In this document: positions 3,222-46,142 of the stretch, in pieces
Numbering within the stretch: position 1 is the first letter of the stretch
Layout: each line of letters begins with the position of its first letter
DNA from: Parcubacteria group bacterium
GTDB lineage: Bacteria; Patescibacteriota; Minisyncoccia; Phycocordibacterales; CALRHW01
DNA: 64,000 nucleotides
NCBI GenBank assembly: GCA_039740835.1
Contig: JBCLGW010000001.1
Coordinates: 27,640-91,639 of the forward strand
Reading direction: 5' to 3'
The notes under the pieces: model-generated
Told to the model about the DNA's origin: nothing
The model's input: the letters and a program-made list of their open reading frames with translations, nothing else
Database searches by the model: none
Position numbers and translations under genes: made by a program

Positions 3222-4001
3222 ATGCGACCAAAAAAATCTCTCGGTCAAAACTTTCTGAAATCAAAACATGCATTGCGGGTTATCGTTGACTGCGCGCAGA
3301 TATCAGGGAGCGATGTCGTGCTTGAAGTCGGACCCGGCAAAGGCGCGCTCACAAAAGAGCTTTTAGTGAATGCGAAAAAAGTAATCGCTGTAGAAAAAGA
3401 TGACCTGCTCATACCGCTTTTGCAAGAAATGTTTGCGGTACAAATATCAGAAGGGAAGCTTGCACTAGTGCACGGCGACATAATGGAAATGTCGAGAGAA
3501 ACACTGGGGGTGGGTGGCGAATACAAACTCGTAGCAAATATTCCTTACTATATTACGGGCGTACTTTTGCGTACATTTTTGTCGGGCGCGCGACCGCCGA
3601 CGCGTATGGTGCTCATGTTGCAGAAAGAGGTCGCGCGCCGTATCGTAGCAAACGACAAAAAAGAAAGTTTGCTTTCTCTTTCAGTAAAAGCGTACGGCAC
3701 ACCGCGCTACATAGAAACGGTCAAAGCGATGTTTTTTTCACCAAAACCAAAAGTAGATTCTGCGATTTTGCTCATAGAAAATATTTCAAAAAAATTCTTT
3801 GATGGCTTTAGCGAAGAAAAGTTTTTCAAAGTGATAAAATCCGGCTTTGCTCATAAAAGAAAAATGCTAAAGAGAAACCTAGAAAGTAATTTCCAAAAAG
3901 AGGCAATAAAAAAAGCTTTTGAAATTTCAAAGCTTCCTCTTACTGTGCGTTCAGAAGACATCGCGCTTTCAGACTGGAAAAATCTGACCGAAAACCTATG
4001 A
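3222..4001 (+). CDS. rsmA: 16S rRNA (adenine1518/1519-N6)-dimethyltransferase, RsmA/KsgA
   Basis: N-terminus KKSLGQNFL and SAM-binding motif LEVGPGKGALT, characteristic of KsgA. Confidence 0.85.
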   Translation: MRPKKSLGQNFLKSKHALRVIVDCAQISGSDVVLEVGPGKGALTKELLVNAKKVIAVEKDDLLIPLLQEMFAVQISEGKLALVHGDIMEMSRETLGVGGEYKLVANIPYYITGVLLRTFLSGARPPTRMVLMLQKEVARRIVANDKKESLLSLSVKAYGTPRYIETVKAMFFSPKPKVDSAILLIENISKKFFDGFSEEKFFKVIKSGFAHKRKMLKRNLESNFQKEAIKKAFEISKLPLTVRSEDIALSDWKNLTENL

Positions 4002-6536: not shown

Positions 6537-8003
6537 GTGTTATTAAAATATTTTAAAAAATCTTTATTTACTGTTTTTCTTTCAATTGTTGTTTTTACCT
6601 TTTTTGTTCCAACAAAAGCTAGCGCGCAAATACCGATCGCTGTGCCAATAATGGAGGTGGGAACTCTCTTATTAACCACCATAGAGATGGCATATCAAAC
6701 AGCTCTAACGGGTTTGAGCACAGATGCAATAGCTGAGAACACTGCGATGCTCTCTGCAAAAGAAACGGGTGTAGGAATCGGCGCATTTGGAATACCTCAC
6801 AGCTCCGCAACAGTGGCGGCGACAAATTCGCTGACCCTCGACTCCATCGCTATCAAGATTATGAAAAATTTAATCTCATCTATCACAGAAGCAACTGTCA
6901 ACTGGATAAATACTGGTTTCGATGGCGGACCACAGTTTGTTACAGACCCAGCTTCTTTTTTCATAAACGTAGCGGATAGGGTGATCGGTGAGTTTATAGA
7001 GGATACTGCGGGTACGAAATCTGATTTAAGTTTTCTCTGTTCTCCTTTTCAAATCCGCTTCGCTCTACGTCTAAACTACTCAGCATCTTTTAAAAATAAA
7101 ATCAAATGTACATTGAGTGATGTCGTAGGAAACATAGAAAACTTCTATAATGATTTTAGTGCGAATGGCTGGACAGGATGGTTTAGTATGACTCAAAACA
7201 GTCAGAACAATACTTACGGAGCATTCATAGCTGCAGATATGGAGCTCAGTAAAAAGCTAGCGACCACTCTGGGAATAGAGGAAAATAAACAAAGCTGGGG
7301 TCAAGGATTTCTTTCGTGGCAAGATTGTCTTGATGTTCCCGCACCAGCGACAGGTGTTGAGTGTAAAAAGAAAGGACCAATAAAAACTCCGGGGAAGATC
7401 ATAAACAGCCAGCTAGAAGAAGTACTCGGCACAGACTTGCGCCAGCTAGAGCTTGCAGACGAGTTTGATGAAATTATCGGTGCTTTGGTACAGCAAGCGA
7501 TGAAACAAGTCATGGTGGGGTTTGGAGCTCTAACAGCTGGTCCGAAAACCCAAGCGACAAGTGAAATGAGTACAACAATAGAAACAATAAGAACAGCAGA
7601 AAAACTTGATGCTCCTGTAAAGGCTAATCTACGTAATGCGCAACTACAAGCACACCAAGTTTATACCAAAACAACACCATTCAGTTATGGTACAGTGGAT
7701 TTTTCTGCAACCGGTGGTGCTGCTGCCGCTTGTAGCAATGTGACTACTAGCACCCTGTTTGCTAACCCAATAATATTTAGTCATATCACCGCAGCTACAG
7801 TAGCCGGCGGGGGTACAAATGCTTGTAGTAGTATCGCTGTAACAGATGGTGGTAAGTGGGCTATTGCTGTTAATTTGAAAAGTGTCGCGAAATCTTTCTG
7901 GTGTGTAGACAGTACTGGAAGGGCACAAATTAGTGGTGTAGCAACATCCACCAACAGCCAAGCTTATGCTAACTCGGTCGTTGCTGGTAGTAAGTGTAAC
8001 TAA
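6537..8003 (+). CDS. Secreted hypothetical protein (488 aa) at the head of the T4SS-like cluster
   Basis: Signal peptide ending ...PTKASAQ, Thr/Ser-rich, with paired Cys near the C-terminus. No recognised family. Confidence 0.4.
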   Translation: MLLKYFKKSLFTVFLSIVVFTFFVPTKASAQIPIAVPIMEVGTLLLTTIEMAYQTALTGLSTDAIAENTAMLSAKETGVGIGAFGIPHSSATVAATNSLTLDSIAIKIMKNLISSITEATVNWINTGFDGGPQFVTDPASFFINVADRVIGEFIEDTAGTKSDLSFLCSPFQIRFALRLNYSASFKNKIKCTLSDVVGNIENFYNDFSANGWTGWFSMTQNSQNNTYGAFIAADMELSKKLATTLGIEENKQSWGQGFLSWQDCLDVPAPATGVECKKKGPIKTPGKIINSQLEEVLGTDLRQLELADEFDEIIGALVQQAMKQVMVGFGALTAGPKTQATSEMSTTIETIRTAEKLDAPVKANLRNAQLQAHQVYTKTTPFSYGTVDFSATGGAAAACSNVTTSTLFANPIIFSHITAATVAGGGTNACSSIAVTDGGKWAIAVNLKSVAKSFWCVDSTGRAQISGVATSTNSQAYANSVVAGSKCN

Positions 8004-8043: not shown

Positions 8044-10248
8044 ATGAAAAAGTTTTTTACTAAAAAATTATTCAGAAACATACTTATAGCGACTTTTGTG
8101 GTGGCAATGTTTTTGCCAATTACTGTAACTGCTCAAGGTGCTTTTGTTGAGGCTGTTGCTAATGCTACTGTTGGGCCTAATGTTGTGCTGGCGGCAAAGA
8201 TTATTGCTGGGATTGGCGGGGAGCTTTTTATGGCGAGAATACGAGCCGCTGTCAACGAGGGTGTAAACGTTCTTGTGGGGTGGCTTGGTAATCTACTACT
8301 AACAATTTCATCCTTTTTCCTTTGGCTTGCCGGACTTTTACTAACTGTTGTCCTGGACGAAACAATGATGAAAATGGGGACAAATATTGATGGCATGCGC
8401 TCAATAAATGTGGGTTGGGCTGCACTCAGAGATGTTGCAAACTTATTTTTTATTTTTATTTTACTTTATGTTGCTATAGGTAGTATTTTAAATATCAGTG
8501 GGGTACAGATTAAAAAAATGCTTGTAAATGTTGTTATTATAGCGCTTTTAATAAACTTCAGTATGTTTTTTACAAAAATGATAATAGACGCATCCAATAT
8601 CTTAACAATTAGTTTCTATAATGCGATTCAGAGCGAAACAAAAGATGGAATTTCTGGAGCAATTGTTCACAAAATGAAACTAACGGGAATATACAACCCC
8701 AGCTCTCAATGGGGAGTGGAACAAGGAGCAACTGCTACACTTGCGGCACAAACAAGGGCGAAAAACAACCCAGTAGACGAGACCATTAGAATACTTATTC
8801 TAAGTATTTTTGGCTCCGTTTTTATGTTTATAGCGGCATTTATATTTCTCGCATTCAGCGTAATGTTTATAGGAAGATTTGTAATACTAATATTTTTACT
8901 AATATTGTCTCCCGTGGCGTTTATCTCAATGGCTCTACCAGAAGATAAGTACTCAAAAAAGTGGTGGAATGCCTTGTTTGCACAGTGTATTTTTGCGCCG
9001 GCATGTATGGCTCTTTTGTGGGTCAGTATAAAAATGCTGGAGGGCATAAATTTTGCTCCCCAAGATTCAAGTTTAGCTGGTTTAAGTTCTGGAGACCCCA
9101 AAGCAGTTCTATTGGTTCTAAATTTTATCGTGATAATATCTATGCTTATTTTTACACTTGTCGTAGCAAAAGAATTTGGAGCATATGGTGCAAACAAGGG
9201 AATGAGCATGTTAAAAACTGCCGGAAATAAGGCGAGAGGGGTGGTTAGTGGGGCGGCTAAAAGAGGGGCGGGAATGGCTGCAAGAGGGGCATTGCGTGGT
9301 GTTGCGAGCGCAACGGGTCTTGACAAATTCCGAGATAGCACTAAAGCAAAAAGTAAGATCTGGCGCACTATTTTGACTCCAGTTAATGCTGTAATGAATG
9401 CAAAAATGCCAGACGGTCAATCGGTGGATTCTGTAAAAGAAAGAGAAGAAAAGTTGAATGCCAAACATTCAGATGCTGTACTAGAAGACAAAAAAGTCGC
9501 GGCAGAGGCAGAGAAGCTAGCAAATGATAAAAAAGCCACAAAAGACAAGGCGGCAGCAGAGAGTGAGATAGAGAACCTAAACAAAGAAATGGTGGGTGTG
9601 CTTGAAAAAAGTCCGGGAGGCGCGGGTAATATAAACACACTTCATTCTCTAAAAAAAGAACTTGAGGTTTTGGGAGAACAATACAACCAATCGACAAATG
9701 AGGGAGACAAAAAGGCAATAGTGGAGCAAATGAAAGCGAAGCGAGAAAAGATACAAGATACACAAAAGAGTGTTGACTCTCAGACAGATAAAATACCTAA
9801 AGCACAAGCAATTAAAGAGCGTCTTGATGCTGTAAAAGGTGAGGTCCGTGGTGCAGAAAAGACGATAGGAAAGGCTATTGATGAGTATTTAGCTGATGCT
9901 CTAAAAGCGGAGGCAGAAAAAATTGAAAGGGCTCCTAGAATATTGGATGGGGTAAGTAATTGGGCAAGTAAAAAGATAAAGCCAATGTTAGAAAAGCTCA
10001 AGATTGGTAGAAGTAGAACAAATAACGTTGGTGATGTTGTTTTTAACACTACGGGGTGGGTAAGGGGTGTGCTTAGGGACGCAATGGGACTATCTCAACA
10101 CAGAAACAATCTCGCCAAGAATCTGCGGAAGGCAGCAAAAAAACAGAGTTTGGAAGAACTGCTTAAAGAAACAAACAAACTCCAAAAGGAACGTGCGAAC
10201 GCAGAAAGCAAGCCTAAAGATTCTGGTGCTGGTAAACCAACAACATAA
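8044..10248 (+). CDS. VirB6/TrbL-like polytopic membrane protein with a long C-terminal coiled-coil tail
   Basis: Signal peptide, then a large loop, then at least five hydrophobic helices in the TrbL/VirB6 arrangement. The K/E-rich C-terminal coiled coil is about 350 aa. It lies next to the PrgI-like and VirB4 genes. Confidence 0.45.
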   Translation: MKKFFTKKLFRNILIATFVVAMFLPITVTAQGAFVEAVANATVGPNVVLAAKIIAGIGGELFMARIRAAVNEGVNVLVGWLGNLLLTISSFFLWLAGLLLTVVLDETMMKMGTNIDGMRSINVGWAALRDVANLFFIFILLYVAIGSILNISGVQIKKMLVNVVIIALLINFSMFFTKMIIDASNILTISFYNAIQSETKDGISGAIVHKMKLTGIYNPSSQWGVEQGATATLAAQTRAKNNPVDETIRILILSIFGSVFMFIAAFIFLAFSVMFIGRFVILIFLLILSPVAFISMALPEDKYSKKWWNALFAQCIFAPACMALLWVSIKMLEGINFAPQDSSLAGLSSGDPKAVLLVLNFIVIISMLIFTLVVAKEFGAYGANKGMSMLKTAGNKARGVVSGAAKRGAGMAARGALRGVASATGLDKFRDSTKAKSKIWRTILTPVNAVMNAKMPDGQSVDSVKEREEKLNAKHSDAVLEDKKVAAEAEKLANDKKATKDKAAAESEIENLNKEMVGVLEKSPGGAGNINTLHSLKKELEVLGEQYNQSTNEGDKKAIVEQMKAKREKIQDTQKSVDSQTDKIPKAQAIKERLDAVKGEVRGAEKTIGKAIDEYLADALKAEAEKIERAPRILDGVSNWASKKIKPMLEKLKIGRSRTNNVGDVVFNTTGWVRGVLRDAMGLSQHRNNLAKNLRKAAKKQSLEELLKETNKLQKERANAESKPKDSGAGKPTT

Positions 10249-10254
10249 ATAAAT

Positions 10255-10848
10255 ATGGACGAAACATTACAAAAAAACATAGCAGATCAGTGGGAGATAC
10301 TTCCAGATGACATCAAAGCTGTTTTACTTTCACCTGAATTAGAAACAAAACTTGATGTTGTTGCGGAAAAATATCAACTCGCGCCAGAGCAGGCAGTGTC
10401 TCTAAAAACAGAGGTTCAGCTTGTTTTGCTTGGCTTAGAACACATCATTGATTTTGCAAAGAATCTTACGGAAGAATTAAAAATCCAAAAAGAGCAGGCC
10501 CGCGCTATTTCTCAAGAAGTGGGCAGTCAAATATTTTTAGGTGTAAAAGAATCTCTAAAGACACTCGGTGAAATAATAGATATTTTGGATTCTGCGGTAG
10601 AAGATTATAAAAAAGAAATGGCTGAACAAAAAGAAACTCAAACCCCAACAGAACAAATAACCCCAGAAACTATTCTGCCCCCAAACCCGCCCGACATCAC
10701 TCTCATTCCAGAGCACACTGAGCTGGGCACAATAATAGACGAAAAGCTCAGTAAAATAGTGCGCACACCGACAGAAAAAGTGGTTATTTCCGAAAGACCA
10801 GCAAACACATACAAGGGAAATGACCCATATCGTGAACCAACAGAATAA
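10255..10848 (+). CDS. Acidic hypothetical protein within the T4SS-like cluster
   Basis: ORF tightly packed between the VirB6-like and PrgI-like genes. No transmembrane segment. Glu-rich. Confidence 0.35.
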   Translation: MDETLQKNIADQWEILPDDIKAVLLSPELETKLDVVAEKYQLAPEQAVSLKTEVQLVLLGLEHIIDFAKNLTEELKIQKEQARAISQEVGSQIFLGVKESLKTLGEIIDILDSAVEDYKKEMAEQKETQTPTEQITPETILPPNPPDITLIPEHTELGTIIDEKLSKIVRTPTEKVVISERPANTYKGNDPYREPTE

Positions 10849-10851
10849 ACT

Positions 10852-11277
10852 ATGAGATTTCAAGTGCCACAATTTACAGATGTTGAGGACAAAATTTTTG
10901 GTCCGCTGACATTCAAGCAGTTTGTATATCTAGCTGGAAGCGGTGGCCTTTGCGTGATTATTTACTTTTTGATACCGATAGGGTTTGTCGCATTTGCTTT
11001 GATGTTGCCTGTGGCTGCGTTTGGAGCAGCACTCGCTTTTTATAAAGTAAACGGCAAGTCTTTTATAAACATGGTGGAGGCATTTTTAAAATACTCAATA
11101 GCAGGAAAGCTCTACATCTGGAAACAAATTGAAAAAAAGCCGGTGGTGGGGTCTGCACCAAAAGAGCTTTCTAGCTCATTTTTACCAAAACTCTCGGGTA
11201 GTAAGCTAAAAGATATGACTTGGAACCTTGGCGTAACAGAGAGCATCAACCCCGTAACAAGAAATGATTTAAATTAA
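10852..11277 (+). CDS. PrgI-family (VirB3-like) T4SS membrane protein
   Basis: N-terminus VPQFTDVEDKIFGPLTFKQFVYLAGSGGL followed by two transmembrane helices. This is the PrgI (PF12666) pattern. It sits immediately upstream of VirB4, as in Gram-positive T4SS. Confidence 0.55.
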   Translation: MRFQVPQFTDVEDKIFGPLTFKQFVYLAGSGGLCVIIYFLIPIGFVAFALMLPVAAFGAALAFYKVNGKSFINMVEAFLKYSIAGKLYIWKQIEKKPVVGSAPKELSSSFLPKLSGSKLKDMTWNLGVTESINPVTRNDLN

Positions 11278-11304
11278 GAGAGAAATAAGATATAATTCTT
11301 TAAT

Positions 11305-11943
11305 ATGGCAACAAAAGCTCAAGCCACCCAAGAATTTGTTCCTTTGACTGATATCAAAGACGGCATAGTCACCCTAAAAGATGGCTCACTTCGAGCTGTG
11401 CTCATGGCTTCAAGCGTCAACTTTTCCCTAAAATCAGAAGACGAGCGTATCGCAATTCTTTATCAGTTTCAAGATTTTCTAAACTCGCTAGATTTTTCTG
11501 TGCAAATTTTTATCCAATCACGTCGTCTAGATATTCGCCCATATATCGCTCTACTAGAAGAGCGAGAGAAAAATCAGGTCAACGACCTCATGAAGATTCA
11601 GGTGCAAGAATACATTCAGTTTATAAAAAAGTTTACGGAGGATACAAACATAATGACAAAACATTTTTTTGTTGTCGTGCCGTATTCTCCAGCGACTCTA
11701 CAAGTAAAAAACCCCCTCGCAAATATTTTTGGAAAAAAGAAAAATTCCGAGGGGGAAAAGATTTCAATGCAAGAAAAGTTTGAAGAAAATCGCACACAAC
11801 TAGAGCAGAGACTTTCTGTGGTAGAGCAGGGGCTGGTGCGTAGTGGTGTGCGAATAGTACAGCTTGGCACAGAGGAAATAGTCGAGCTTTTCTACAAAAT
11901 ATTTAATCCGGGTGATGCAGAAAAACCTATTCAACTTCAATAA
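11305..11943 (+). CDS. VirB4/TraC/CagE-family N-terminal domain (first segment of a VirB4 split by an in-frame TAA)
   Basis: DGIVTLKDGSLRAVLMASSVNFSLKSEDERIAILYQFQDFLNSL-DFSVQIFIQSRR aligns with the conserved VirB4 N-terminus (A. tumefaciens VirB4: DHIVLLEDGSIMSIAHVSGLPFELEE...). It ends at TAA, with ATG three nucleotides later in the same frame. Confidence 0.55.
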   Translation: MATKAQATQEFVPLTDIKDGIVTLKDGSLRAVLMASSVNFSLKSEDERIAILYQFQDFLNSLDFSVQIFIQSRRLDIRPYIALLEEREKNQVNDLMKIQVQEYIQFIKKFTEDTNIMTKHFFVVVPYSPATLQVKNPLANIFGKKKNSEGEKISMQEKFEENRTQLEQRLSVVEQGLVRSGVRIVQLGTEEIVELFYKIFNPGDAEKPIQLQ

Positions 11944-11946
11944 CAT

Positions 11947-13761
11947 ATGAGCTTTTTAAACAAATTATTTGGAAATAGCAAAAACAAAGACGAGCTTGTC
12001 GGCATGCTTCCGCAAGAGATTTACAAAGCACAAACTCTTGAATTAAGAGATGTTATTGCGCCGAGTGCTTTGAAAATTGGGCCGAGGGGGCTCAACTTGG
12101 GGGATAAAATAGTGCGTACATTTTTTGTCATATCATATCCGCGATTTTTGGGTGAGAGCTGGTTTGCGCCGATAATAAATCTAGACCGAGTTTTTGATGT
12201 TTCTATTTTCATACACCCGATAGATACCGTAAAAGTTTTGCGACAATTCCAAAAAAAGGTCGCTGAAGTACAAAGCCAAATCCATGACCGTGAAGAAAGA
12301 GGAATGGTGCGTGACCCAATGCTAGATACTGCGTATCAAGACCTAGAAAACCTGCGCGACAATCTACAGCAAGCCCAAGAAAAGCTTTTTGATGTTGGAC
12401 TTTATATTTCAATATATGGAGAGAGCGATGCTGAGCTTGATAAAATAGAATCTGAAATAAAATCAATTCTTGAATCAAAGCTTGTGTATGTAAAACCCGC
12501 ACTGTTTCAACAAGAGCAAGGATACAAAAGCGTGCTACCCATCGGCACAGACTTGCTTGCTGTGCATTCAAAGCTAAACTCTTCTCCGCTTTCAAGTCTT
12601 TTTCCATTTATATCTTTTGACCTTACATCAGACAAGGGGATTCTTTATGGTATAAATCGTCACAACTCAAGTTTGGTACTTTTTGATAGATTTTCTCTTG
12701 AAAATTACAACTCAATCACTTTCGCAAAATCTGGTTCTGGAAAATCATACGCCACAAAACTAGAAATACTTCGCACACTGATGTTTGAAACAGAGGTGAT
12801 AGTCATTGACCCAGAACGAGAGTACGAGTACATGGCGGAGGCCGTCGGTGGAAGATATTTTAAAATATCTTTAAACTCAGAGCATCATATCAACCCTTTT
12901 GACTTACCGCCACCAACCGAGGGAGAGTCCTCTGCCAACATCTTGAGGAGTAACATCATAAATCTAGTGGGGCTTTTTAGACTTATGCTTGGGGGGATTT
13001 CTGCTGAGGAAGACGCTATCGTAGACCGCGCAATCACTGAAACATATGCATTAAAAGACATCACCTCCGAGTCTGATTTTACAAACATTGACCCGCCACT
13101 AATGTCAGACTTTGAGCTCGTACTCTCTGGAATGGAGGGGGGTGAGTCACTAGCACAGCGTCTCACAAAATATACAAAAGGTACTTGGGCTGGATTTATA
13201 AACAGACCGACAAATATAGATATAAACAAAAAGTTTATCGTTTTTTCTTTGCGCGATATGGAAGACGAGCTCAAACCGATAGCGATGTATATCGTAATGC
13301 ATTACATTTGGGGAGCAATACGCCGAGAACTCAAAAAGCGTCTACTCGTCATTGACGAGGCTTGGTGGATGATGAAATCAGACGACACAGCGTCTTTTCT
13401 ACTTTCGCTTGCAAAACGTGGACGAAAATATTATCTCGGTCTAGCAACCATTACCCAAGACGTGGACGACTTTCTCAAATCTCCGTACGGTCTACCTATC
13501 ATCACCAACTCATCTATTCAGATTTTACTCAAACAGTCACCAACATCTATAGACAAACTTCAACAAACCTTCAACCTTACCGACGAAGAAAAATATTTAC
13601 TATTGGAGTCTGGATTAGGAGAAGGAATATTCTTTGCCGGACTAAAGCATGTTGCGATAAAAATTATTGCTTCTTATACCGAAGACCAAATCATCACCTC
13701 AGATCCGTCTCAGATTTTATCTATCCAACGAGCGAAAAAAGAATTGGAGGGTGCGAAATAA
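11947..13761 (+). CDS. VirB4/TraC-family T4SS ATPase (second segment, carrying the ATPase domain)
   Basis: Walker A motif AKSGSGKSYAT and Walker B LLVIDEAWWMM, which is the VirB4 DEAW signature. Also contains the second N-terminal VirB4 subdomain. 604 aa. Confidence 0.75.
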   Translation: MSFLNKLFGNSKNKDELVGMLPQEIYKAQTLELRDVIAPSALKIGPRGLNLGDKIVRTFFVISYPRFLGESWFAPIINLDRVFDVSIFIHPIDTVKVLRQFQKKVAEVQSQIHDREERGMVRDPMLDTAYQDLENLRDNLQQAQEKLFDVGLYISIYGESDAELDKIESEIKSILESKLVYVKPALFQQEQGYKSVLPIGTDLLAVHSKLNSSPLSSLFPFISFDLTSDKGILYGINRHNSSLVLFDRFSLENYNSITFAKSGSGKSYATKLEILRTLMFETEVIVIDPEREYEYMAEAVGGRYFKISLNSEHHINPFDLPPPTEGESSANILRSNIINLVGLFRLMLGGISAEEDAIVDRAITETYALKDITSESDFTNIDPPLMSDFELVLSGMEGGESLAQRLTKYTKGTWAGFINRPTNIDINKKFIVFSLRDMEDELKPIAMYIVMHYIWGAIRRELKKRLLVIDEAWWMMKSDDTASFLLSLAKRGRKYYLGLATITQDVDDFLKSPYGLPIITNSSIQILLKQSPTSIDKLQQTFNLTDEEKYLLLESGLGEGIFFAGLKHVAIKIIASYTEDQIITSDPSQILSIQRAKKELEGAK

Positions 13762-13767
13762 AAAATT

Positions 13768-14280
13768 ATGCAAAAAATTCCGAAAACAACTGCTGTATTG
13801 ATGGTCTTGTTGGCTGTGTCCGTGGATGTTTTGGGGTTTTTAATAGGACTTCTTCACTTTATTCCTGTTTTGGGCAATATTATCGCTGCTGTTGTTATTT
13901 GGATTATGTCTCTTATTGCTGTGTTTGTTTTTTATATTTGGTTAAAAATGAAAAATGTTAGTTTTGTAAGTGCAAAAAGAGTTTTGAGTTTTTTTGGTAG
14001 TTTTTTTGGAGAGATGATACCAGTAATAGACGCCTTCCCACTGTGGACAACAGGAATAGCCCTTACAATAGGGTCTGTTTGGATGGAGGAGGCCCTAGAG
14101 CAAATAACGGGAATGAAAGTAAGTATAAATGCAATGGCTTCTGGTGGTGTTAAGAATAAGGCAGGAGCTGATGCTGGAACACAAAGACTTGGCGAACCAA
14201 GCCTTGAAAGGGCAGGAATAGACGAAAAAACAGTGCGTTCGGCAGACGCTGTGCAAAGCAAAATTCCTCCAACTGCATAA
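13768..14280 (+). CDS. Hypothetical multi-pass membrane protein within the T4SS-like cluster
   Basis: Three or four hydrophobic helices at the N-terminus. 170 aa. Confidence 0.4.
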   Translation: MQKIPKTTAVLMVLLAVSVDVLGFLIGLLHFIPVLGNIIAAVVIWIMSLIAVFVFYIWLKMKNVSFVSAKRVLSFFGSFFGEMIPVIDAFPLWTTGIALTIGSVWMEEALEQITGMKVSINAMASGGVKNKAGADAGTQRLGEPSLERAGIDEKTVRSADAVQSKIPPTA

Positions 14281-14286
14281 AACCTA

Positions 14287-15339
14287 TTGAAGAAAGTGTT
14301 TGGTGTGCTAAAATTAAAGTGTAATTTCCATATGTTGCATTTATCTAAAAAAATTATTCTAAATACACTCTTTGCCTTTTTCTTTTTGGGTAGTACAGTC
14401 GCGCTAGCACAAACACCACAGACAATGGGGGGGTTATCAACATTTCCAAAATATCCCAGGCCAAACGAGCTCGTGACTGTCCACCTAAACGACTACTCTA
14501 TAAACCTAAACGCAACGGAGGTCACTTGGTCACTAGACGGCAAAATACAGAAAAAAGGAATCGGTGAAAAACAATTTCAATTTACAGCTGGAGCTATTGG
14601 TAAAAAATCGGTCGTAAAAGCGTCAACAAATACTTACACCCTAACCCTCAACATTAATCCTGTCGGACTAGATATTTTCTGGCAGACACAGACCTACACA
14701 CCGCCATTTTACAAAGGTAAGGCATTGTTTTCATATCAAAGCGCCGTTGATTTTGTCGCGCTTCCGGTTTTCCTAAATTCAAGTGGTGTCCTGATAGATC
14801 CAAAAACTCTCATTTACACTTGGTCAAAAAATAATGCGGTGGCAGGCAATCTTTCTGGATACGGCAAAAACAGCATATCTTTAGTGGGTGGTGTATTAGC
14901 AAAGCCAATGACCATTGGCGTGAAAGTATCATCTATAGACGACACCCTAGAATCAGAAACGGAAATCTCTCTCACAGCAAATTCTCCACAAACAATATTG
15001 TACGAAAATCATCCACTATATGGCATTACCTATAATAAATCCTTACCGTATCAACTTAGTTTGGATGAAAAAGAAATTACTCTATCTGTCGCACCGTACT
15101 TTTTTGATGTGAATAGAAAAGACAAACCGACAATTTCTTATGTTTGGAAAATGAACGGAAAAGAAATACAAAATCTGGAAAAACCATTTTCACTAGTACT
15201 CAGAAAACCCGAGGGTGGGGGAGCTGGATCAGCTATACTTTCTTTGCTAATCACTCAGACAGAAAAAATGTTTCAGTTTGCCAACAGCTCCATTTCTATA
15301 TTTTTTAAGTCCGAAGAGGAAACACAAACAAACATATGA
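14287..15339 (+). CDS. Secreted hypothetical protein with Ig-like repeats within the T4SS-like cluster
   Basis: Signal peptide (..FFFLGSTVALAQ). No recognised family. The start may instead be the internal Met at 14332. Confidence 0.4.
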   Translation: MKKVFGVLKLKCNFHMLHLSKKIILNTLFAFFFLGSTVALAQTPQTMGGLSTFPKYPRPNELVTVHLNDYSINLNATEVTWSLDGKIQKKGIGEKQFQFTAGAIGKKSVVKASTNTYTLTLNINPVGLDIFWQTQTYTPPFYKGKALFSYQSAVDFVALPVFLNSSGVLIDPKTLIYTWSKNNAVAGNLSGYGKNSISLVGGVLAKPMTIGVKVSSIDDTLESETEISLTANSPQTILYENHPLYGITYNKSLPYQLSLDEKEITLSVAPYFFDVNRKDKPTISYVWKMNGKEIQNLEKPFSLVLRKPEGGGAGSAILSLLITQTEKMFQFANSSISIFFKSEEETQTNI

Positions 15340-15764
15340 TAAAAAGGTTTAGAAAAAATTTTGGATTTGTTTTTTTACTTCTGGCGTTTTCTGCTGTGTT
15401 TTTTGGTGGTGTAAATGTAAAAGTATCTACAGCTGAACATAACTATGTGCCTCTAGCTCCAATAACTGGGGTAGTAGAGGGCAGAAACGTCACCCTAAAC
15501 ACCTACCTACCTGCAATGTTTAAATTTTTGATCGGAGTGGCGGCTGTGCTTGCTGTTATTATGATCACTATCGGTGGTATTCAATATATGTCGACAGACG
15601 CTATATTCGAAAAAAGTGAGGGAAAGGAGCGCATAAGACGGGCTCTTGGCGGACTTTTTCTGGCTCTTGTTGCTTGGCTTGTACTACAAACAATAAACCC
15701 CAAACTACTGAATACCAATCTTAATATGCAAAATATGGACGCGGGAACAACCCAAACACCTTAA
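15336..15764 (+). CDS. TrbC/VirB2-type T4SS pilin-like protein
   Basis: Long signal peptide followed by two hydrophobic helices (FLIGVAAVLAVIMITIGGIQYM ... LGGLFLALVAWLVLQTINP). Size is 142 aa. The start overlaps the previous stop by 4 nt. Confidence 0.45.
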   Translation: MIKRFRKNFGFVFLLLAFSAVFFGGVNVKVSTAEHNYVPLAPITGVVEGRNVTLNTYLPAMFKFLIGVAAVLAVIMITIGGIQYMSTDAIFEKSEGKERIRRALGGLFLALVAWLVLQTINPKLLNTNLNMQNMDAGTTQTP

Positions 15765-15773
15765 TCTTACAAA

Positions 15774-17018
15774 ATGTTAAAAAAAATAATCACAATACTT
15801 TTCATACTTATAGTCCTCATTGCTGGCGTTTTTGCTTTTTTGTATTTCACACAAAAAGATAGCGGTAGTGGGGGTAGAGGAATAAGTGTACGGGATTTTT
15901 TCCCTTTTGGACAAGAGTCGAGTACTCCAGCCACAACACCGAGTCAAGAAACAGAAAATAGAGTGCCCGTTGAAACAGCAAAAACACCGACAGTACCTCC
16001 AGATTTACGACAAATATATGCATACCCAGTATCGGGGGCTGGTGCGTTTTCTAGTACAAGTACTACTGTGGTGCGTTTTATAGACAAAGCTACCGGCAAC
16101 CTATACGAAGCAGAGACAGATTTAGATATTGTTACTAGAATTTCAAACACAACAATACCAAAAGTTTATAGTGCAATATTTTCAGACAAAAATTCTGTTG
16201 TACTAAGGTACGCACAAGATGACACAGACCTCATAGAAACCGTTTATGGAAAAGTTGCTACAAGTACTGCGACCAGCACAGCGGGTTCTGTTGTTGAACT
16301 AAAAACCGTATACCTTGACCCAAACATAAAAGAGCTTGTTTTGTCAGATAAAAACGACCGCATTCTTTCTATCACACAATCTGGCACTGGCTCAATCGGC
16401 ACACTTTCAAAACCAGACGGCACAACAAAAACCCAACTTTTTACATCACCGATACGCGAGTGGGTACCACAGTGGCTAAAAACAAACACAGTCACCCTCA
16501 CAACAAAAGCTAGTACAGAGGTCGCTGGATTTATGTATTCAGTGAATACAACAAACGGTGTGATGCAACCAATACTTTCAAACATCTTTGGGCTAACAAC
16601 ACTCACAAACAACATCGCCTCAACAACACTTTTCACATACAGCACCACAGACGGGATTTTCGCATTACAAACATACGATTGGAATAAAAAAGTCACCACA
16701 CAATTTCCACTCTCACCAACTTTTGTAGATAAATGTGTATGGAGTAAAAAAAATGCGGACCTAGTTTACTGCGCGGTGCCACATACCATGCCAAAGGGGG
16801 ATTATCCTGACGCATGGTACAAAGGCCTTGTGTCTTTCTCAGACGACATCTGGCGTGTAAATGTATCCACCGGCAACAAAGAGCTTGTCGCCGAGCTAAA
16901 AACGATATCGGGCAGAGACCTAGATGTCATAAACCCATCTCTAGACGGGGCAGAAAATTACTTTGTATTCACAAACAAAACAGACCTTACCCTTTGGAGT
17001 TATAAATTAAAAAACTAG
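15774..17018 (+). CDS. Membrane-anchored hypothetical protein, possibly a beta-propeller-like periplasmic domain
   Basis: N-terminal transmembrane segment, Pro/Thr-rich linker, then repeated beta-strand-rich segments. Last gene of the cluster. Converges on yidC. Confidence 0.4.
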   Translation: MLKKIITILFILIVLIAGVFAFLYFTQKDSGSGGRGISVRDFFPFGQESSTPATTPSQETENRVPVETAKTPTVPPDLRQIYAYPVSGAGAFSSTSTTVVRFIDKATGNLYEAETDLDIVTRISNTTIPKVYSAIFSDKNSVVLRYAQDDTDLIETVYGKVATSTATSTAGSVVELKTVYLDPNIKELVLSDKNDRILSITQSGTGSIGTLSKPDGTTKTQLFTSPIREWVPQWLKTNTVTLTTKASTEVAGFMYSVNTTNGVMQPILSNIFGLTTLTNNIASTTLFTYSTTDGIFALQTYDWNKKVTTQFPLSPTFVDKCVWSKKNADLVYCAVPHTMPKGDYPDAWYKGLVSFSDDIWRVNVSTGNKELVAELKTISGRDLDVINPSLDGAENYFVFTNKTDLTLWSYKLKN

Positions 17019-17746
17019 TTTTTATTGTATTTTTTTCGCAAAAATAGTTCTTGACCGATAGCAAAAAGATTGCTTGTAATCCAGTATAAAGAGATGGCTG
17101 TAGAAATACTGTAGGCGAAAACAACAGACAAAACAGGGAAGATGTATTTCATTTGAATACTCATACTTCTAGCGAGATCGTGTTTGAAAGAGTCGGATGC
17201 ACTAGCGCCTTCTTTTTTAGCCTGTGCCTTTGGGGTAATAAATTTCATCTGAAAATAAGTTGTTACACCAACCAAAATAGCTAGTGGTATGTTCTTTTGG
17301 GAAATATCCAAAAAACCAAGAAAAAACATGTTTATCGTCTCTGGTGCGTGCACAAAACCATACAAAATGTCAGCAGTAACTTTTGGTAGACCTGACTGCC
17401 AAAAAAGTCTGTACAAAGCAAAAATTATTGGCAGCTGTATAAGAATGAGTAGTATGCTTAAAAACGGCTGAACTTTTTTTTCTTTATACAAAGCAAACGT
17501 TTTTCGCGCCTGCTCCTGCTTGTCGTCTTTGTATTTTTCTTTTATGCGGTCTATGTCTGGCTGAATTTCCTTCATCTTTATCTGTGTTATCACAGATTTT
17601 TTTGAAAGAGGAAAAAGAACAAGCTTTACTAAAACAGTGAGCAAAATCACCAACATTCCAGCATCTGCCCAAGGAAACGTGTTTATTAAAAAAATAAAAC
17701 CGTTGTAAAGCGGGTGATAGATGAGCGTATTGTATATTGATAACAT
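17015..17746 (-). CDS. yidC: Membrane protein insertase YidC/Oxa1, short form
   Basis: Multi-pass membrane protein with the conserved YidC core (..FPLSKKS..PFLSILLILIQLPIIFALYRLF..). Sits in the canonical position next to rnpA and rpmH. Confidence 0.8.
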   Translation of the reverse strand: MLSIYNTLIYHPLYNGFIFLINTFPWADAGMLVILLTVLVKLVLFPLSKKSVITQIKMKEIQPDIDRIKEKYKDDKQEQARKTFALYKEKKVQPFLSILLILIQLPIIFALYRLFWQSGLPKVTADILYGFVHAPETINMFFLGFLDISQKNIPLAILVGVTTYFQMKFITPKAQAKKEGASASDSFKHDLARSMSIQMKYIFPVLSVVFAYSISTAISLYWITSNLFAIGQELFLRKKYNKN

Positions 17747-17782: not shown

Positions 17783-18112
17783 CTATATTATTTGGGCTTT
17801 TTTCATCAAACCCACGATTTCTTCTTTTTGTTTTTCAAAAGATAATGTCAGAGCTCCTTTTTTTGCCGAAAAAACGGCTTTGGCTGGTTTTTTTATATCA
17901 CTCAAATGTTCTCGGATTAAAGAGTATACTCTTCGGCGGATTCTGTTTCTATCTACTGCATTTTGGGCTACTTTTTTTGAAACAAGCACGGCATAAGAGT
18001 CTGTATTTGAGGGTAGAGCTCTAAGGGTAAAATAGGTTGAGTGGTACAAAGACCCTTGTAGTAGAATCGGTTTAAAAGAATCTTTTGAAATTCTTTTATG
18101 CTTTGGCAACAT
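17783..18112 (-). CDS. rnpA: Ribonuclease P protein component
   Basis: Basic protein with RNase P motif KKVAQNAVDRNRIRRRVYSLIRE. Located between rpmH and yidC. Confidence 0.7.
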   Translation of the reverse strand: MLPKHKRISKDSFKPILLQGSLYHSTYFTLRALPSNTDSYAVLVSKKVAQNAVDRNRIRRRVYSLIREHLSDIKKPAKAVFSAKKGALTLSFEKQKEEIVGLMKKAQII

Positions 18113-18121
18113 AAAATATGG

Positions 18122-18256
18122 CTATACAGAGAGCTTTGTTCGGCCTTTTCGTCGGCGTCGAGTGATGACCTTTTTACCCCCAGCTGTTCTAGACCGCACT
18201 AGAAAACCGTGAGATCTTGCTCGTTTTCGTTTTTTTGGTTGGTATGTTTGAGACAT
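18122..18256 (-). CDS. rpmH: 50S ribosomal protein L34
   Basis: Manual translation gives [44 protein letters not shown] (44 aa), which is canonical L34. It was missed by the ORF track because it is under 60 aa. Confidence 0.8.
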
Positions 18257-18412
18257 ATAGGGGGATTATATATGAGTAATCTGATTATTTCAAGGTTTTT
18301 GGTGCTATTAGACTTATTCACAGTATATACACAGAGTATCAACATAATTAGGTATTTACCGCAAGTATAAAACAACTCATCATCATATATAATAAACCTT
18401 AAGAAATTTAAA

Positions 18413-19774
18413 ATGCAGACTCAAATTATGGATAGTAAAAAAATGTGGGATAGTGTACTTGTGGATGTTGAAATAAATGTTTCAAAAGCAAATTTTAATA
18501 CGTGGTTTAAAGATACCTTTATTTACAAAATAGAAGAGGGAATTGTTTACTTGAGCGTACCAAATTCATTTGTAAAACAGTGGTTGATGGATAAATATCA
18601 CGCCTTTATACTCAAATCTCTACGAAATCTCTCAGAAAACATCCGATCTTTGGATTATATAGTCAACAAGGGGGATATAAAGAAAAAAGAGGATGAAATG
18701 CCTAAAAATATTACTGCGAGTACAAACGAGCTACCACTTTCAGAGTTTTATATAAACAAAGATGATAATTTAAATCCGAAATACACATTTGATTCTTTTG
18801 TTATCGGCCCATTCAACGAGCTAGCTCACGCTGCATCTCAAGCAATAATCAAAAAACCGGGGATTATTTACAACCCGCTTTTTATTTACGGAAATACTGG
18901 CCACGGAAAAACTCATCTCATCCAAGCGATAGGTAACACAATGAAGCACAACTACCCCGACAGAAAAATCTGTTATGTAACTTCAGAAAAATTTACTGTT
19001 GACTACGTAAACTCTGTTCAAAACAACAAAGTAAATCAGTTTAAGGATAAATATAGAAAATACGACATTCTAATAATGGACGACATCCAGTTTTTCTCAA
19101 AAAAAGAAAGCACACAGGAGGAGCTTTTCCATCTTTTCAACCACCTATACGACAACAACAAACAAATTATATTCTCTTCTGATAAACACCCCAACTACAT
19201 TCAAAACCTAGAAGAGCGCCTCAAATCACGCTTTGGGGCTGGAATGATAGTGGACATACCAGCGCCTAATCACGAATCTAGGGTGGCTATATTAAACGCT
19301 AAACTAAAGTTTCATAACTTTAATCTTCAGCCAGAGATAGTAGACTTTCTAGCTGGGACGCTCTCCTCCAACATCCGCGAGCTTGAGGGTGCTTTAAACA
19401 GCATCATCTGCCAAGCAGAACTTAAACAAAAAGATCTCACACTAGCTGATGTAAAAAATCTCCTTAAAAACAGTGTCAAACCAAAGAAAAATCTTTCTCC
19501 AAAGGAAATTATAAAAATAATCGCTGATTTTTATAATATAAACGAGGAAAGTATATACGAAAAAACTCGTAAAAAAGAAATTATCAAACCTCGCCAACTA
19601 GCAATGTATGTGTTGAGAGAAGATTTCAATATATCTTACCCATCAATAGGGGAGAAAATGGGGGGGAGAGATCACACCACAGTTATTCATTCCTGTGAAA
19701 AGATAAAAAAGGATTTGAAATATGATAATCTTTTAATGCAGGAGTTAAACCAAATCCGGTCGATGTTGGTTTGA
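18413..19774 (+). CDS. dnaA: Chromosomal replication initiator DnaA
   Basis: AAA+ Walker A motif GNTGHGKTHL, sensor motifs, and a C-terminal DnaA-box-binding domain (..KPRQLAMYVLRE..). Gene order is rpmH, dnaA, dnaN. Confidence 0.9.
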   Translation: MQTQIMDSKKMWDSVLVDVEINVSKANFNTWFKDTFIYKIEEGIVYLSVPNSFVKQWLMDKYHAFILKSLRNLSENIRSLDYIVNKGDIKKKEDEMPKNITASTNELPLSEFYINKDDNLNPKYTFDSFVIGPFNELAHAASQAIIKKPGIIYNPLFIYGNTGHGKTHLIQAIGNTMKHNYPDRKICYVTSEKFTVDYVNSVQNNKVNQFKDKYRKYDILIMDDIQFFSKKESTQEELFHLFNHLYDNNKQIIFSSDKHPNYIQNLEERLKSRFGAGMIVDIPAPNHESRVAILNAKLKFHNFNLQPEIVDFLAGTLSSNIRELEGALNSIICQAELKQKDLTLADVKNLLKNSVKPKKNLSPKEIIKIIADFYNINEESIYEKTRKKEIIKPRQLAMYVLREDFNISYPSIGEKMGGRDHTTVIHSCEKIKKDLKYDNLLMQELNQIRSMLV

Positions 19775-20004
19775 CCTTTTTAGTGCTGTGTATATGATGT
19801 GAATAAAGTGCAATAGATGTGGATAAGATTGGGGTGTTTTAAAAAAGAGATTACTTATAAACAAACCGCCAAAAATAATCAACACCTTTTTAAACTTAAA
19901 CCCATAAAAAACGTTGCAAAATATAGTTAAATAAAGTTATCCAGTTATCAACACCCCTAGTATTAATAATAAATTTATATATAGATATATATTAAATACT
20001 GCTT
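19775..20004. promoter_or_regulatory. Putative oriC: DnaA boxes plus an AT-rich unwinding element between dnaA and dnaN
   Basis: Perfect DnaA box TGTGGATAA at 19818-19826. Near-consensus boxes TTATCCAGT at 19935-19943 and TTATCAACA at 19944-19952. An AT-rich stretch lies at 19958-19995. An additional box-like TTATTCACA sits upstream of dnaA near 18313. Confidence 0.6.
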
Positions 20005-21108
20005 ATGAAAGTAGAATGCCTAACAGAAAAATTAAGTAAAAGTATTTTACAAGCAGAAAGAATTGCTGGTAAAACACACTCACTTCCTATTATTAATTGT
20101 GTGTTTATACAAGCTAAGGATAATTCTTTAATAATACGGTCAACAAATCTTGATTTGGGTGTTGAGATAATAATTCCTGTAAAAGTTTTTGAGGAAGGGG
20201 TGGTGGTGGTGCCGGCGCAAATTTTAGGGGTTTTTCTATCTAGTCTTTTAGGTGATAAAACAGTGACACTACACACAGAGGATAATGTTTTATTAGTTTC
20301 ATCTCAAAAAAACTCAACAAAAATAAAAACTCATATAAATGAAGATTTCCCAACAATACCAGTAGTTTCTAAAGAAAAAAGTTTTAATATAAAAGCATTA
20401 GATTTTATAAAAGGTTTGAAGTCTGTGTGGTATAGCTCGTCTGTTTCAAGTATAAAGTCAGAACTAGCTAGTGTTTATGTTTACTATGATGAGGATGATA
20501 ATTTTGTTTTTGTGGCAACAGATTCATTTAGACTTGCGGAGAAAAAAATAAAAGTAAATAAAATAAAAGATTTTGACCATATTTTAATACCATTTAAAAA
20601 TATTCCAGAAATAATAAGGGTTCTTGAGGGGGCAACAAACGACGTGAGTATTTGTTTAGAAAAAAACCAAATATCTTTTAGTTATGAAAATATTTATCTA
20701 ACATCTCGTGTTATTGATGGTGTTTTCCCAGATTACAAACAAATTATTCCAAAAACACAAACAACAGAAGTTGTTATGTTGAAACAAGATTTTATAAATT
20801 CTTTAAAAATCGCAAACATTTTCTCAAATAAATTAAATCAAATAAATATAAAAGCCGTACCTTCTAAGAAAATATTTGAATTACAAACAAAAAACTCGGA
20901 TGTTGGAGAAAATATAAACGAAATAGACGCTATTTTTAGTGGGGAAGACGTAGATATAAACTTTAATTATAAGTATATAGTTGATTGTTTACAGTCTATA
21001 GATTCAGATAGTATCTCTTTAAATTTCAACGGCATAAGTAAACCAATGGTTATTCGTGGTGTTTCTGATAAATCATTTCTTTATCTTGTGATGCCTATGA
21101 ATAAATAG
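20005..21108 (+). CDS. dnaN: DNA polymerase III beta sliding clamp
   Basis: 367 aa, three-domain clamp. N-terminus MKVECLTEKL.. It sits directly after dnaA and oriC. Confidence 0.85.
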   Translation: MKVECLTEKLSKSILQAERIAGKTHSLPIINCVFIQAKDNSLIIRSTNLDLGVEIIIPVKVFEEGVVVVPAQILGVFLSSLLGDKTVTLHTEDNVLLVSSQKNSTKIKTHINEDFPTIPVVSKEKSFNIKALDFIKGLKSVWYSSSVSSIKSELASVYVYYDEDDNFVFVATDSFRLAEKKIKVNKIKDFDHILIPFKNIPEIIRVLEGATNDVSICLEKNQISFSYENIYLTSRVIDGVFPDYKQIIPKTQTTEVVMLKQDFINSLKIANIFSNKLNQINIKAVPSKKIFELQTKNSDVGENINEIDAIFSGEDVDINFNYKYIVDCLQSIDSDSISLNFNGISKPMVIRGVSDKSFLYLVMPMNK

Positions 21109-21112
21109 GTTT

Positions 21113-21367
21113 ATGGAAAATATTTCATCTTTTTTAGAAAAATTTAAGAAATTTCTATCCTCTAGTGTTTCAGTAAAACAATCTGTCGTGGAGGTTTTAA
21201 AAGATGTTTTAGGTGTTGATGTTGATACTAAATCTATCAATATAAAAAATAGTTTTGTTTTTATAAAATGTTCCCCAGCGCTAAAAAACGCAATCTTTTT
21301 AAAAAAGAAATTAATTATTGATGGTATCAACCAAAAAACTAAAGCCAGTATCTCTGATATTCGCTAG
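21113..21367 (+). CDS. Small DUF721/DciA-like protein, a putative replicative-helicase loader
   Basis: 84 aa immediately downstream of dnaN. The C-terminal segment FVFIKCSPALKNAIFLKKKLIIDGINQ resembles the DciA/DUF721 core. This assignment is tentative. Confidence 0.3.
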   Translation: MENISSFLEKFKKFLSSSVSVKQSVVEVLKDVLGVDVDTKSINIKNSFVFIKCSPALKNAIFLKKKLIIDGINQKTKASISDIR

Positions 21368-26516: not shown

Positions 26517-27557
26517 TTAAAGTAATTTTCCTGTTTTCCCGTCGCTTTTTACTGCGTTTATGTGAGCATGCCCAGCATCAGTGACGACTCTGCCACGAGG
26601 CGTGCGTTCTAAAAAGCCGATTTGTAGCAGGTAGGGCTCATTAAACTCTTCTATTGTCGCTTGTTCTTCGGACAGAGATGCGGCAAGGGTGTTTAGACCC
26701 ACAGGCCCACCTTTAAATTTTTTTACTACAGTTTGCAGAATAGTCCTGTCAGATGGTGTCAGTCCAACACCGTCTACACCGAGCAATAAAAGCGCTTTGT
26801 CCACCACATTTTTTGTTAGAGTTTTTCCGTGCACTTGAGCAAAGTCTCTACATCTTTTCAAAAAATAGTTGGCGGTACGCGGAGTAAATCTACTGCGCTT
26901 TGCTATCTCTGTGGTCGCCGAGCTTTCTATAACAATGCCTAAAATTTTTGCAGAGCGTCGTACGATTTCTTCTATTTCACTTTGACTATAGTACTCAAGT
27001 CGAAATATTCCGCCAGAAAAACGTGAACGAAGCGGAGAGGAAATGAGGGCAATACGAGTAGTCGCAGATATCATTGTAAAAAGCGGAAGCTCTAGCTGAA
27101 TAGTGCGCGCTGACGGACCTTTGCCGATGATTATATCTAAAACACCAGACTCCATTGCGGGGTAGAGTACTTCTTCTATTGTTTTATTGAGGCGATGAAT
27201 TTCGTCTATAAAAAGAATGTCGCCAGCAGAAAGATTGGTGAGGATGGAGGCAAGGTCGCCCACCTTTTCAATAGCTGGACCAGAAGTTATTTTTATCTGC
27301 GCGCCGATTTCTTTTGCGATGAGATGGGCGAGTGTTGTTTTACCAAGTCCGGGCGGTCCGTAAAAAAGAATGTGCTCTGGCGGATGATTTCTCTGTTTTG
27401 CCGCGGTTAAAAGTATGTGCAGATTATCTTTTATATTTTTTTGACCAATGTACTCGTTCCATTTTGATGGCCTGAGAGTTTGGTCTAGTGAAAGCAAGTC
27501 TTTTTCTGACTCCTCTACATCCGAAGCGTTGTTTTTTTGCTTATCTATCTTTGACAT
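26517..27557 (-). CDS. ruvB: Holliday junction branch-migration ATPase RuvB
   Basis: AAA+ Walker A motif GPPGLGKTTLA. Walker B DILFIDEIHRL. A C-terminal winged-helix domain is present. Confidence 0.9.
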   Translation of the reverse strand: MSKIDKQKNNASDVEESEKDLLSLDQTLRPSKWNEYIGQKNIKDNLHILLTAAKQRNHPPEHILFYGPPGLGKTTLAHLIAKEIGAQIKITSGPAIEKVGDLASILTNLSAGDILFIDEIHRLNKTIEEVLYPAMESGVLDIIIGKGPSARTIQLELPLFTMISATTRIALISSPLRSRFSGGIFRLEYYSQSEIEEIVRRSAKILGIVIESSATTEIAKRSRFTPRTANYFLKRCRDFAQVHGKTLTKNVVDKALLLLGVDGVGLTPSDRTILQTVVKKFKGGPVGLNTLAASLSEEQATIEEFNEPYLLQIGFLERTPRGRVVTDAGHAHINAVKSDGKTGKLL

Positions 27558-45185: not shown

Positions 45186-46142
45186 ATGAGTAAGAATTTC
45201 TTTGATTTTTTTCCTCCGCCACATTTTTTGGAAATGCCGTCTTTCGGTTTTTCTATTTCTGATACGAGTTTGCGTTTTGTTGAGCTCCGACCGCACGAAG
45301 GTTCTTTTGTTGTGGGGGACTATGCCGAGCGACCGCTACCGCTAGGAGCAGTAGACGCTGGCTATATTCACAAGCCAGAGCAGGTAGTGGAGGTTCTAAA
45401 GTCGCTAAAAAAAGAATACAACCTAAAATTTGTGCGAGTGACTTTGCCAGAAGAAAAAGCTTTTGTCTACAAAACACAGATACCAGCTGTCGCGCCAGAA
45501 GAAATGCGCAGTAGTGTTGAGTTTACGCTCGAGGGAAATGTGCCAGTCACTTCTGCTGATTCTGTTTTTGATTTTACTGTTATGCCACAAAAAAAATCTG
45601 ATCCATTGCATGTAGATGTTGCGGTATGTGTTGTGCCAAACAAAGTTGTAGATGCATATCTGTCACTTTTTTCTTCGGCTGGACTTGTCGTGACAGCTTT
45701 TGGTCTAGAGTCTCAGGCGGTCGTACATTCTATTATTGAGCAAGGGGACACAAACACTTATCTAATTTTGAATTTAGATAAATATAAAACTGGTTTTTAT
45801 ATAGCCACAGGCAATGCCGTGCATTTTACATCTACAATGTCTATTACCACAGACTCTTTGCCAGAATTGGCGAGGGAGATAAATAAAATATATTGGCATG
45901 AATATGGAGAGAAAAAAGAAAAGGGAAGCTCTATAAACAAAATACTTTTGTGTGGCGATGGCGCTGACAAAAATGGAGTGAGGGAATATATTTTCAACAA
46001 CCTAGGCATAGAGGCGGAAATAGCAAATGTTTGGAAAAATGTTTTTGTTTTTGATATTTATGTTCCAGATATTTCGTACAAAGATTCTGTTAGCTTTGCG
46101 GGAGCGATAGGTCTGGCACTGCCTTCTTTTTTACAAATATGA
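45186..46142 (+). CDS. pilM: Type IV pilus assembly protein PilM (actin-like ATPase fold)
   Basis: N-terminus ..FGFSISDTSLRFVEL... followed by the PilM-like domain order. It is followed by pilN-like and pilO-like genes. Confidence 0.6.
   Translation: MSKNFFDFFPPPHFLEMPSFGFSISDTSLRFVELRPHEGSFVVGDYAERPLPLGAVDAGYIHKPEQVVEVLKSLKKEYNLKFVRVTLPEEKAFVYKTQIPAVAPEEMRSSVEFTLEGNVPVTSADSVFDFTVMPQKKSDPLHVDVAVCVVPNKVVDAYLSLFSSAGLVVTAFGLESQAVVHSIIEQGDTNTYLILNLDKYKTGFYIATGNAVHFTSTMSITTDSLPELAREINKIYWHEYGEKKEKGSSINKILLCGDGADKNGVREYIFNNLGIEAEIANVWKNVFVFDIYVPDISYKDSVSFAGAIGLALPSFLQI

Follow-up and report, generated by a model that had tools for sequence, protein, structure and literature searches.

The commonest type IV secretion system (T4SS) component in Patescibacteria is TrsD, which is remotely homologous to the N-terminal portion of VirB4 and has no assigned function (Quinonero-Coronel et al., 2025, Microb Genom, PMC12102498). 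Of 2,272 TrsD homologues, 1,664 occur in association with VirB4, and the gene typically sits beside virB4 and close to dnaA. Outside Patescibacteria, TrsD is restricted to the pGO1 subclass of MPF-FATA. The Patescibacteria T4SS gene clusters lie near dnaA, dnaN, ksgA, rnpA, and rpmH (PMC12102498). TrsD is essential in "Candidatus Southlakia epibionticum," and epibiotic growth required the Patescibacteria T4SS in the single species tested (PMC12102498). In the literature, origin-proximal chromosomal T4SS clusters have been suggested to be co-opted for a non-conjugative role. Here, we describe two adjacent open reading frames, ORF A and ORF B, in a stretch of 64,000 nucleotides of a Parcubacteria genome (contig JBCLGW010000001.1, positions 27,640 to 91,639; the whole stretch is referred to as the window). 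The ORFs correspond to the two parts of a VirB4 protein separated by a single in-frame TAA. With a probability of about 0.93, they represent an evolved, conserved, and already known fission of the VirB4 gene into a trsD/TraC-like gene and a short virB4, located in an MPF-FATA-like Patescibacteria T4SS cluster.

The split VirB4 is the ordinary arrangement for this lineage and has been described before. The gene set of the Patescibacteria TrsD–VirB4 clusters matches the cluster in the window, as do the yidC/dnaA/dnaN/ksgA neighborhood and the position of TrsD immediately upstream of virB4; no substantive difference to the window locus is apparent (PMC12102498). Measured against the passages of that paper that were searched, the analysis adds three points: ORFs A and B tile full-length VirB4 without overlap, both align in order with a fused relative, and the spacing and frame of the junction vary. 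In Guglielmini et al. (2014, PMC4027160), the word "TrsD" is absent from the main text.

Comparable pairs are found on plasmids of Firmicutes. ORF A spans the TrsD model of the staphylococcal pGO1/pSK41 systems (TrsD/TraD plus TrsE/TraE, MPF-FATA pGO1 subclass, NF041427). A PLSDB plasmid search with the ORF A protein returned distant relatives in 65 records (21–31% identity). On the Bacillus thuringiensis Bt407 and Clostridium botulinum pCLJ plasmids, a relative of 257–328 amino acids is encoded directly downstream of a PrgI-family gene and directly upstream of, or overlapping, a DUF87/ATP-binding VirB4 gene of 620–661 amino acids. A Halobacillus plasmid carries an annotated TrsD (345 amino acids) directly upstream of a 622-amino-acid DUF87 protein; PrgI is not annotated there. 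C. botulinum matches named "TraC family protein" were considered as fused comparators and rejected, being split as well. Like the window, these plasmid gene trios place a VirB4 N-terminal homologue of about 200–345 amino acids directly upstream of a VirB4 ATPase of about 620–660 amino acids. However, they belong to plasmid-borne conjugation machines, whereas the window system is chromosomal and origin-proximal, and the plasmid TrsD sequences are only distantly related to ORF A (24.9 bits against a cut-off of 200; 21–31% identity). The occurrence of the split in distantly related Firmicute systems suggests that it is old. The original prediction, which was made from the window alone, regarded a natural split of VirB4 as unusual; this is wrong, since the split is the norm in the phylum, is found on Firmicute plasmids, and has been published (PMC12102498).

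Single-chain VirB4 proteins, such as TrwK of R388 (PDB 7O41/8RTB), the CD1110 family, and a fused Patescibacteria protein described below (P0193), share the domain order and the ATPase core with the window pair. They consist of one polypeptide, whereas the window encodes two, with the break located within the N-terminal domain. In R388, the N-terminal domains of VirB4 link the protomers within each dimer and also make contact with VirB3 and VirB8 (review PMC12857230).

Two separate polypeptides and a conserved stop codon

Direct reading of the window gives CAA TAA CAT ATG AGC at positions 11938–11952. The trsD-like ORF A (11305–11943, plus strand) starts with ATG, encodes 212 amino acids, and ends with the TAA at 11941–11943. 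Three nucleotides (CAT, 11944–11946) separate it from ORF B, a short-form virB4 on the same strand (11947–13761, 604 amino acids), which also starts with ATG. Both starts share one frame (coordinate modulo 3 equals 1), and the TAA is the sole stop in the continuous A–B translation. The direct read and the ORF list thus bear out the original prediction of an in-frame split by a single TAA with an ATG three nucleotides further on; its placement of the stop at 11944–11946 is off by one codon, as these positions read CAT. The spacing of three nucleotides is also present at 10848/10852 and 46681/46685 in the window and at the orthologous trsD–virB4 loci L007 and L056. A second NCBI record (L085) contains the identical junction, but is 100% identical over 6,639 nucleotides and possibly not an independent sample.

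The split was compared in a scan of GTDB species-representative genomes, which yielded 80 loci; the 78 loci containing both parts were evaluated. All relatives are metagenome-assembled genomes (MAGs) of Paceibacteria, Parcubacteria, or Zambryskibacteria. In each of the 78 loci, trsD and virB4 are separate ORFs. The pair encodes two distinct polypeptides, and the TAA is a genuine stop whose conservation is seen in the protein end and in the orthologous stops. A genuine two-polypeptide VirB4, one of three options considered in the original prediction, proved to be the correct one. The comparison of orthologues that had been proposed for distinguishing between a lesion and an evolved split consistently revealed two genes with intergenic spacing and speaks for the latter. 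Amino acid identity across the related loci is 64–85% for A and 77–92% for B (63% for B in one locus truncated at the contig end). All 25 aligned ORF A homologues end with EKPIQL followed by a tail of zero to nine amino acids.

The stop codon of ORF A is TAA in 54, TAG in 15, and TGA in 9 of the loci. The spacer ranges from −4 to 466 nucleotides with a mode of 1 nucleotide (21 loci), and 55 of the 78 spacers are not longer than 15 nucleotides. Relative to A, the start of ORF B is shifted by +1 in 41 loci and by +2 in 20, and is in frame in 17, below the third that chance alone would give. The closest relatives (L001, L004, and L006; identity 79–85% for A and about 91–92% for B) have the stop at the same position, followed by spacers of 5, 5, and 1 nucleotides. 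Because these relatives keep the stop position and are yet out of frame, as are 61 of the 78 orthologues in total, the shared frame of trsD and virB4 in the window genome is, judged by the aligned sequences, a coincidence. The variation of the junction frame across the orthologues also excludes a fused product as the conserved functional form.

Colinearity of the two halves with full-length VirB4

ORF A is homologous to the first 180–215 residues (approximately) of full-length VirB4. Five VirB4/TrbE models of NCBIfam gave partial matches, all at their N-terminal positions, and ORF A spans the TrsD/TraD model NF041427 (201 positions) end to end, from position 13 to 199. The precomputed annotation PF26593 ("TraC-like") is attached to an identical protein (P0001) and to the gene in the second NCBI record; since the local Pfam scan assigned no family to ORF A, the PF26593 assignment rests on this precomputed annotation. 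More than 7,900 homologues of ORF A were retrieved in a search of 5.8 billion proteins. The best 120 all have a length of 211–229 amino acids, an identity of 66–100%, and the PF26593 annotation, and originate from Parcubacteria, Paceibacterota, and Zambryskibacteria. In a Foldseek comparison, the best PDB matches of the AlphaFold 2 model of ORF A were the TrwK/VirB4 chains of the R388 machine (8rtb_A, E-value 8e-4, predicted-fold TM-score 0.53 normalized to the query).

For the ORF A family, 1.84 billion cluster representatives were searched exhaustively with a profile, and the best 150 representative clusters were examined. Except for one, all are stand-alone proteins (149 of 150, median 227 amino acids). 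About 28% of the representatives (42 of 150; P0142–P0265) have low-complexity C-terminal extensions of 60–230 amino acids rich in Pro, Gln, Thr, and Ala, which further points to a free C-terminus in this family. The ORF A protein of the window lacks such a tail.

ORF B covers the second half of the VirB4 N-terminal domain and the C-terminal ATPase domain. It matches NF045971 (CD1110-family VirB4) with 367.6 bits (cut-off 325) over model positions 182–733 of 752 and PF19044 (P-loop_TraG) with 95.2 bits (cut-off 25.8). With its match beginning at position 182 of the 752, ORF B does not hold a complete N-terminal domain in one chain. The Walker A (KSGSGKSY) and Walker B (LLVIDEAW) motifs were read in the translation. 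Residues 229–585 match PDB 4ag5, the solved VirB4 C-terminal domain (E-value 1.9e-39), and residues 255–559 align to residues 446–741 of TrwK.

The two ORFs occupy successive parts of the full-length models: positions 3–137 (A) and 182–733 (B) of the CD1110 model (752 positions), 100–252 and 270–893 of VirB4_plasma (894), and 3–179 and 279–724 of VirB4_CagE (792). That ORFs A and B tile these models without overlap indicates a fission and not the addition of a paralogous domain. At about residue 215 of approximately 800, the break falls within the N-terminal domain and not at the boundary of the N- and C-terminal domains.

The only fused member among the 150 representatives, P0193, is a natural TraC-like plus VirB4 protein of 797 amino acids. 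Its gene (L081:544–2937) is located in another Patescibacteria MAG beside prgI and near dnaA. Residues 1–207 of ORF A correspond to residues 1–214 of P0193 (44% identity) and residues 33–593 of ORF B to residues 230–791 (56% identity); the alignment of both in order confirms the colinearity with a fused VirB4. The first 32 amino acids of ORF B are absent from P0193. The 15-amino-acid linker of P0193 holds the sequence QGMGGVAS, which could be the former start of the downstream gene, and P0193 could hence be a secondary fusion.

Expression of the pair and alternative explanations

A Shine–Dalgarno core, defined as GGAG, GAGG, or AGGA within 22 nucleotides of the start, is present upstream of only 5 of the 67 ORFs in the window. 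As the original prediction had noted correctly, ORF B has no such core before its ATG; the same is true of 62 of the 67 ORFs. An rRNA gene was not found in the window by an Rfam scan, and the anti-Shine–Dalgarno sequence is hence not readable there. Same-strand spacers of −4 to 6 nucleotides are common in the window, where a spacer of three nucleotides occurs three times, and spacers of one to six nucleotides are common in the T4SS operon. A promoter-like site, TTTAAA-17-TATAAT (11268–11296, plus strand), matches the consensus at 10 of 12 positions and is the best such site between 7800 and 17200. It ends 8 nucleotides before the ATG of trsD; the total number of hits was not above the shuffled expectation. 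The position of this site suggests a leaderless or near-leaderless trsD–virB4 transcript with virB4 as the downstream cistron. A TATAAT-like box was also seen 5–12 nucleotides upstream of many other starts (the box of trsD is located at 11291–11296), among them those of the ORFs starting at 45186 and 49811 and, on the minus strand, at 27557 and 36694, suggesting that leaderless or near-leaderless mRNAs are widespread in the genome.

In a genome that hardly uses Shine–Dalgarno sequences, ORF B would be translated as the next cistron of the operon, most likely by ordinary translational coupling. Ribosomes ending at the TAA would re-initiate three nucleotides downstream and produce roughly equimolar amounts of TrsD and VirB4. 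The prevalence of short spacers among the orthologues and the junction RNA, which is less structured than shuffled controls, favor coupling. The termination–reinitiation put forward in the original prediction is plausible in this respect, but the cues cited for it, the missing Shine–Dalgarno sequence and the abutting stop and start, are genome-wide and not specific for this junction. By analogy with the N-terminal domain of TrwK in the R388 structure, TrsD and the short VirB4 may assemble non-covalently into a VirB4-like protomer, in which the TrsD part would help the ATPase to dock to VirB3/PrgI and to the membrane platform.

Several points weigh against the fission of a VirB4 gene into coupled trsD and virB4 genes. 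The score of ORF A on NF041427 (24.9 bits) is far under the cut-off of 200; by this measure, ORF A is a distant relative of the staphylococcal TrsD and stands outside the family of that model. The AlphaFold model of ORF A is of moderate confidence only (mean predicted local distance difference test score 65), with modest E-values in the Foldseek comparison. No match at E ≤ 1 was obtained when the PDB sequences were searched with the ORF A family profile, so that the relation of ORF A to the VirB4 structures in the PDB was reached through fold comparison only. The family does not depend on tight coupling throughout, since spacers of 16–466 nucleotides are present in 23 of the 78 orthologues, five of them with an inserted gene. 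Finally, both the mechanism of coupling and a physical contact between TrsD and VirB4 are what we infer.

A specialized termination–reinitiation device exceeding ordinary operon coupling, which would have been selected to fix the stoichiometry of TrsD and VirB4, appears improbable. It would fit the dominance of short spacers, the unstructured junction, and the lack of a Shine–Dalgarno motif. However, the unrelated neighboring gene pairs 10848/10852, 13761/13768, and 14280/14287 are equally tight and also lack a Shine–Dalgarno motif, the longer spacers in 23 orthologues do not agree with such a device, and the spacers vary in length and sequence among the orthologues, as seen without a formal motif search.

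Another explanation, for which the chance is similarly slim, is limited to genomes with an in-frame spacer of three nucleotides. Rare readthrough of the TAA would add a minor fused full-length VirB4 isoform to the two separate proteins there. In a broader form of this idea, the fission may turn TrsD into a dissociable, separately tunable docking adaptor for the VirB4 ATPase, and lineages would toggle between the split and the fused state, the latter represented by P0193.

Programmed stop-codon readthrough or another recoding event that makes full-length VirB4 as the functional product is even less probable. The common frame of A and B with nothing but TAA-CAT in between would permit it, and among the 17 orthologous junctions that are in frame, 12 lack any additional in-frame stop within the spacer. 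The remaining five contain 2–16 additional stops, and the 61 out-of-frame junctions contradict readthrough. All three stop codons are used at the end of ORF A, and TAA is the main genuine stop of the genome (the commonest in the window, 43 of 67 ORFs). No stable RNA structure flanks the stop; the minimum free energy at the junction was −11.3 kcal/mol, with a z-score of +1.32 compared to shuffled sequences. A tRNA scan of the window revealed seven ordinary tRNAs and no suppressor among them. Readthrough, which the original prediction had listed as an option, was rejected as the mode in which the locus operates on the basis of the frames and the absence of structure at the stop.

The last of its options, a nonsense mutation in a pseudogenized virB4 or a sequencing or assembly error creating a false TAA in one full-length gene, is next to impossible: a fused VirB4 is the textbook form and exists in one Patescibacteria relative (P0193), and only one stop interrupts the shared frame of the two ORFs, but the split recurs in 78 of 78 species and 149 of 150 clusters with the stop at the same place in all of these species and all 25 aligned homologues, the related loci show strong conservation of both halves, and ORF B has its own ATG and a 32-amino-acid head that the fused form lacks. 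It is this comparative evidence that rules out a sequencing error and not the identical junction in the second NCBI record, which is weak evidence and perhaps not independent.

For annotation, the evolved fission of VirB4 implies that no pseudogene, frameshift, or recoding site should be flagged at this junction; appropriate names are trsD (TraC-like VirB4 N-terminal homologue) for ORF A and virB4 for ORF B. Within the VirB4 N-terminal domain, the conserved fission provides a natural point of division, which could be useful for the structural and biochemical dissection of VirB4–VirB3 docking. The results are a modest refinement of published knowledge and do not describe a new kind of system.

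The T4SS cluster and insertions in related spacers

The locus is a chromosomal, origin-proximal, MPF-FATA-like T4SS cluster typical of Patescibacteria (class Paceibacteria/Parcubacteria). VirB4, TrsD, PrgI/VirB3, VirB6, and a VirB2-like pilin are encoded together, with the identity of VirB6 resting on a weak match. The prgI/virB3-like gene (10852–11277, plus strand) lies directly upstream of trsD and matches PF12666 (PrgI) with 47.3 bits (cut-off 27). The gene at 8044–10248 (plus strand) encodes a VirB6-like polytopic membrane protein, whose match to NF045889 (ICE_Mbov_0396_TM, E-value 4.4e-8) is under the cut-off. The VirB2-like T4SS pilin gene (15336–15764, plus strand) was assigned by PF18895 (T4SS_pilin; 32.2 bits, cut-off 26.6). 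Five tightly packed ORFs of the operon (6537–8003, 10255–10848, 13768–14280, 14287–15339, and 15774–17018) gave no match in Pfam or NCBIfam and are candidates for VirB8-, VirB1-, or adhesin-like components.

A ksgA-like gene is located at 3222–4001. Directly downstream of the T4SS cluster follow yidC (17015–17746, minus strand), dnaA (18413–19774), and dnaN (20005–21108). The G+C content drops to 0.31–0.34 around 18–22 kb (18001–22000), and this stretch probably marks the region of the replication origin.

Long trsD–virB4 spacers of 421–466 nucleotides were observed in 5 of the 78 loci (L010, 4634–5057; L011; L017, 4634–5083; L026, 4637–5105; L063). Four of them contain an ATG-initiated ORF of about 114–134 amino acids. 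The two ORFs that were scanned (L010 and L026) belong to PF05635, the "23S rRNA-intervening sequence protein" family (E-values 6e-33 and 1e-39), and imperfect inverted repeats of 18–34 nucleotides flank the insert in the three spacers checked (L010, L017, and L026). Judging by these features, a mobile element resembling an intervening sequence seems to have inserted into a protein-coding operon. Spacers of 97–122 nucleotides without an ORF (L019:1606–1728, L024:4637–4752, L046:4629–4727, and L057:3650–3787) consist of long imperfect AT-rich inverted repeats with arms of 25–45 nucleotides and possibly represent empty hairpin elements akin to the ones around the intervening-sequence protein genes.

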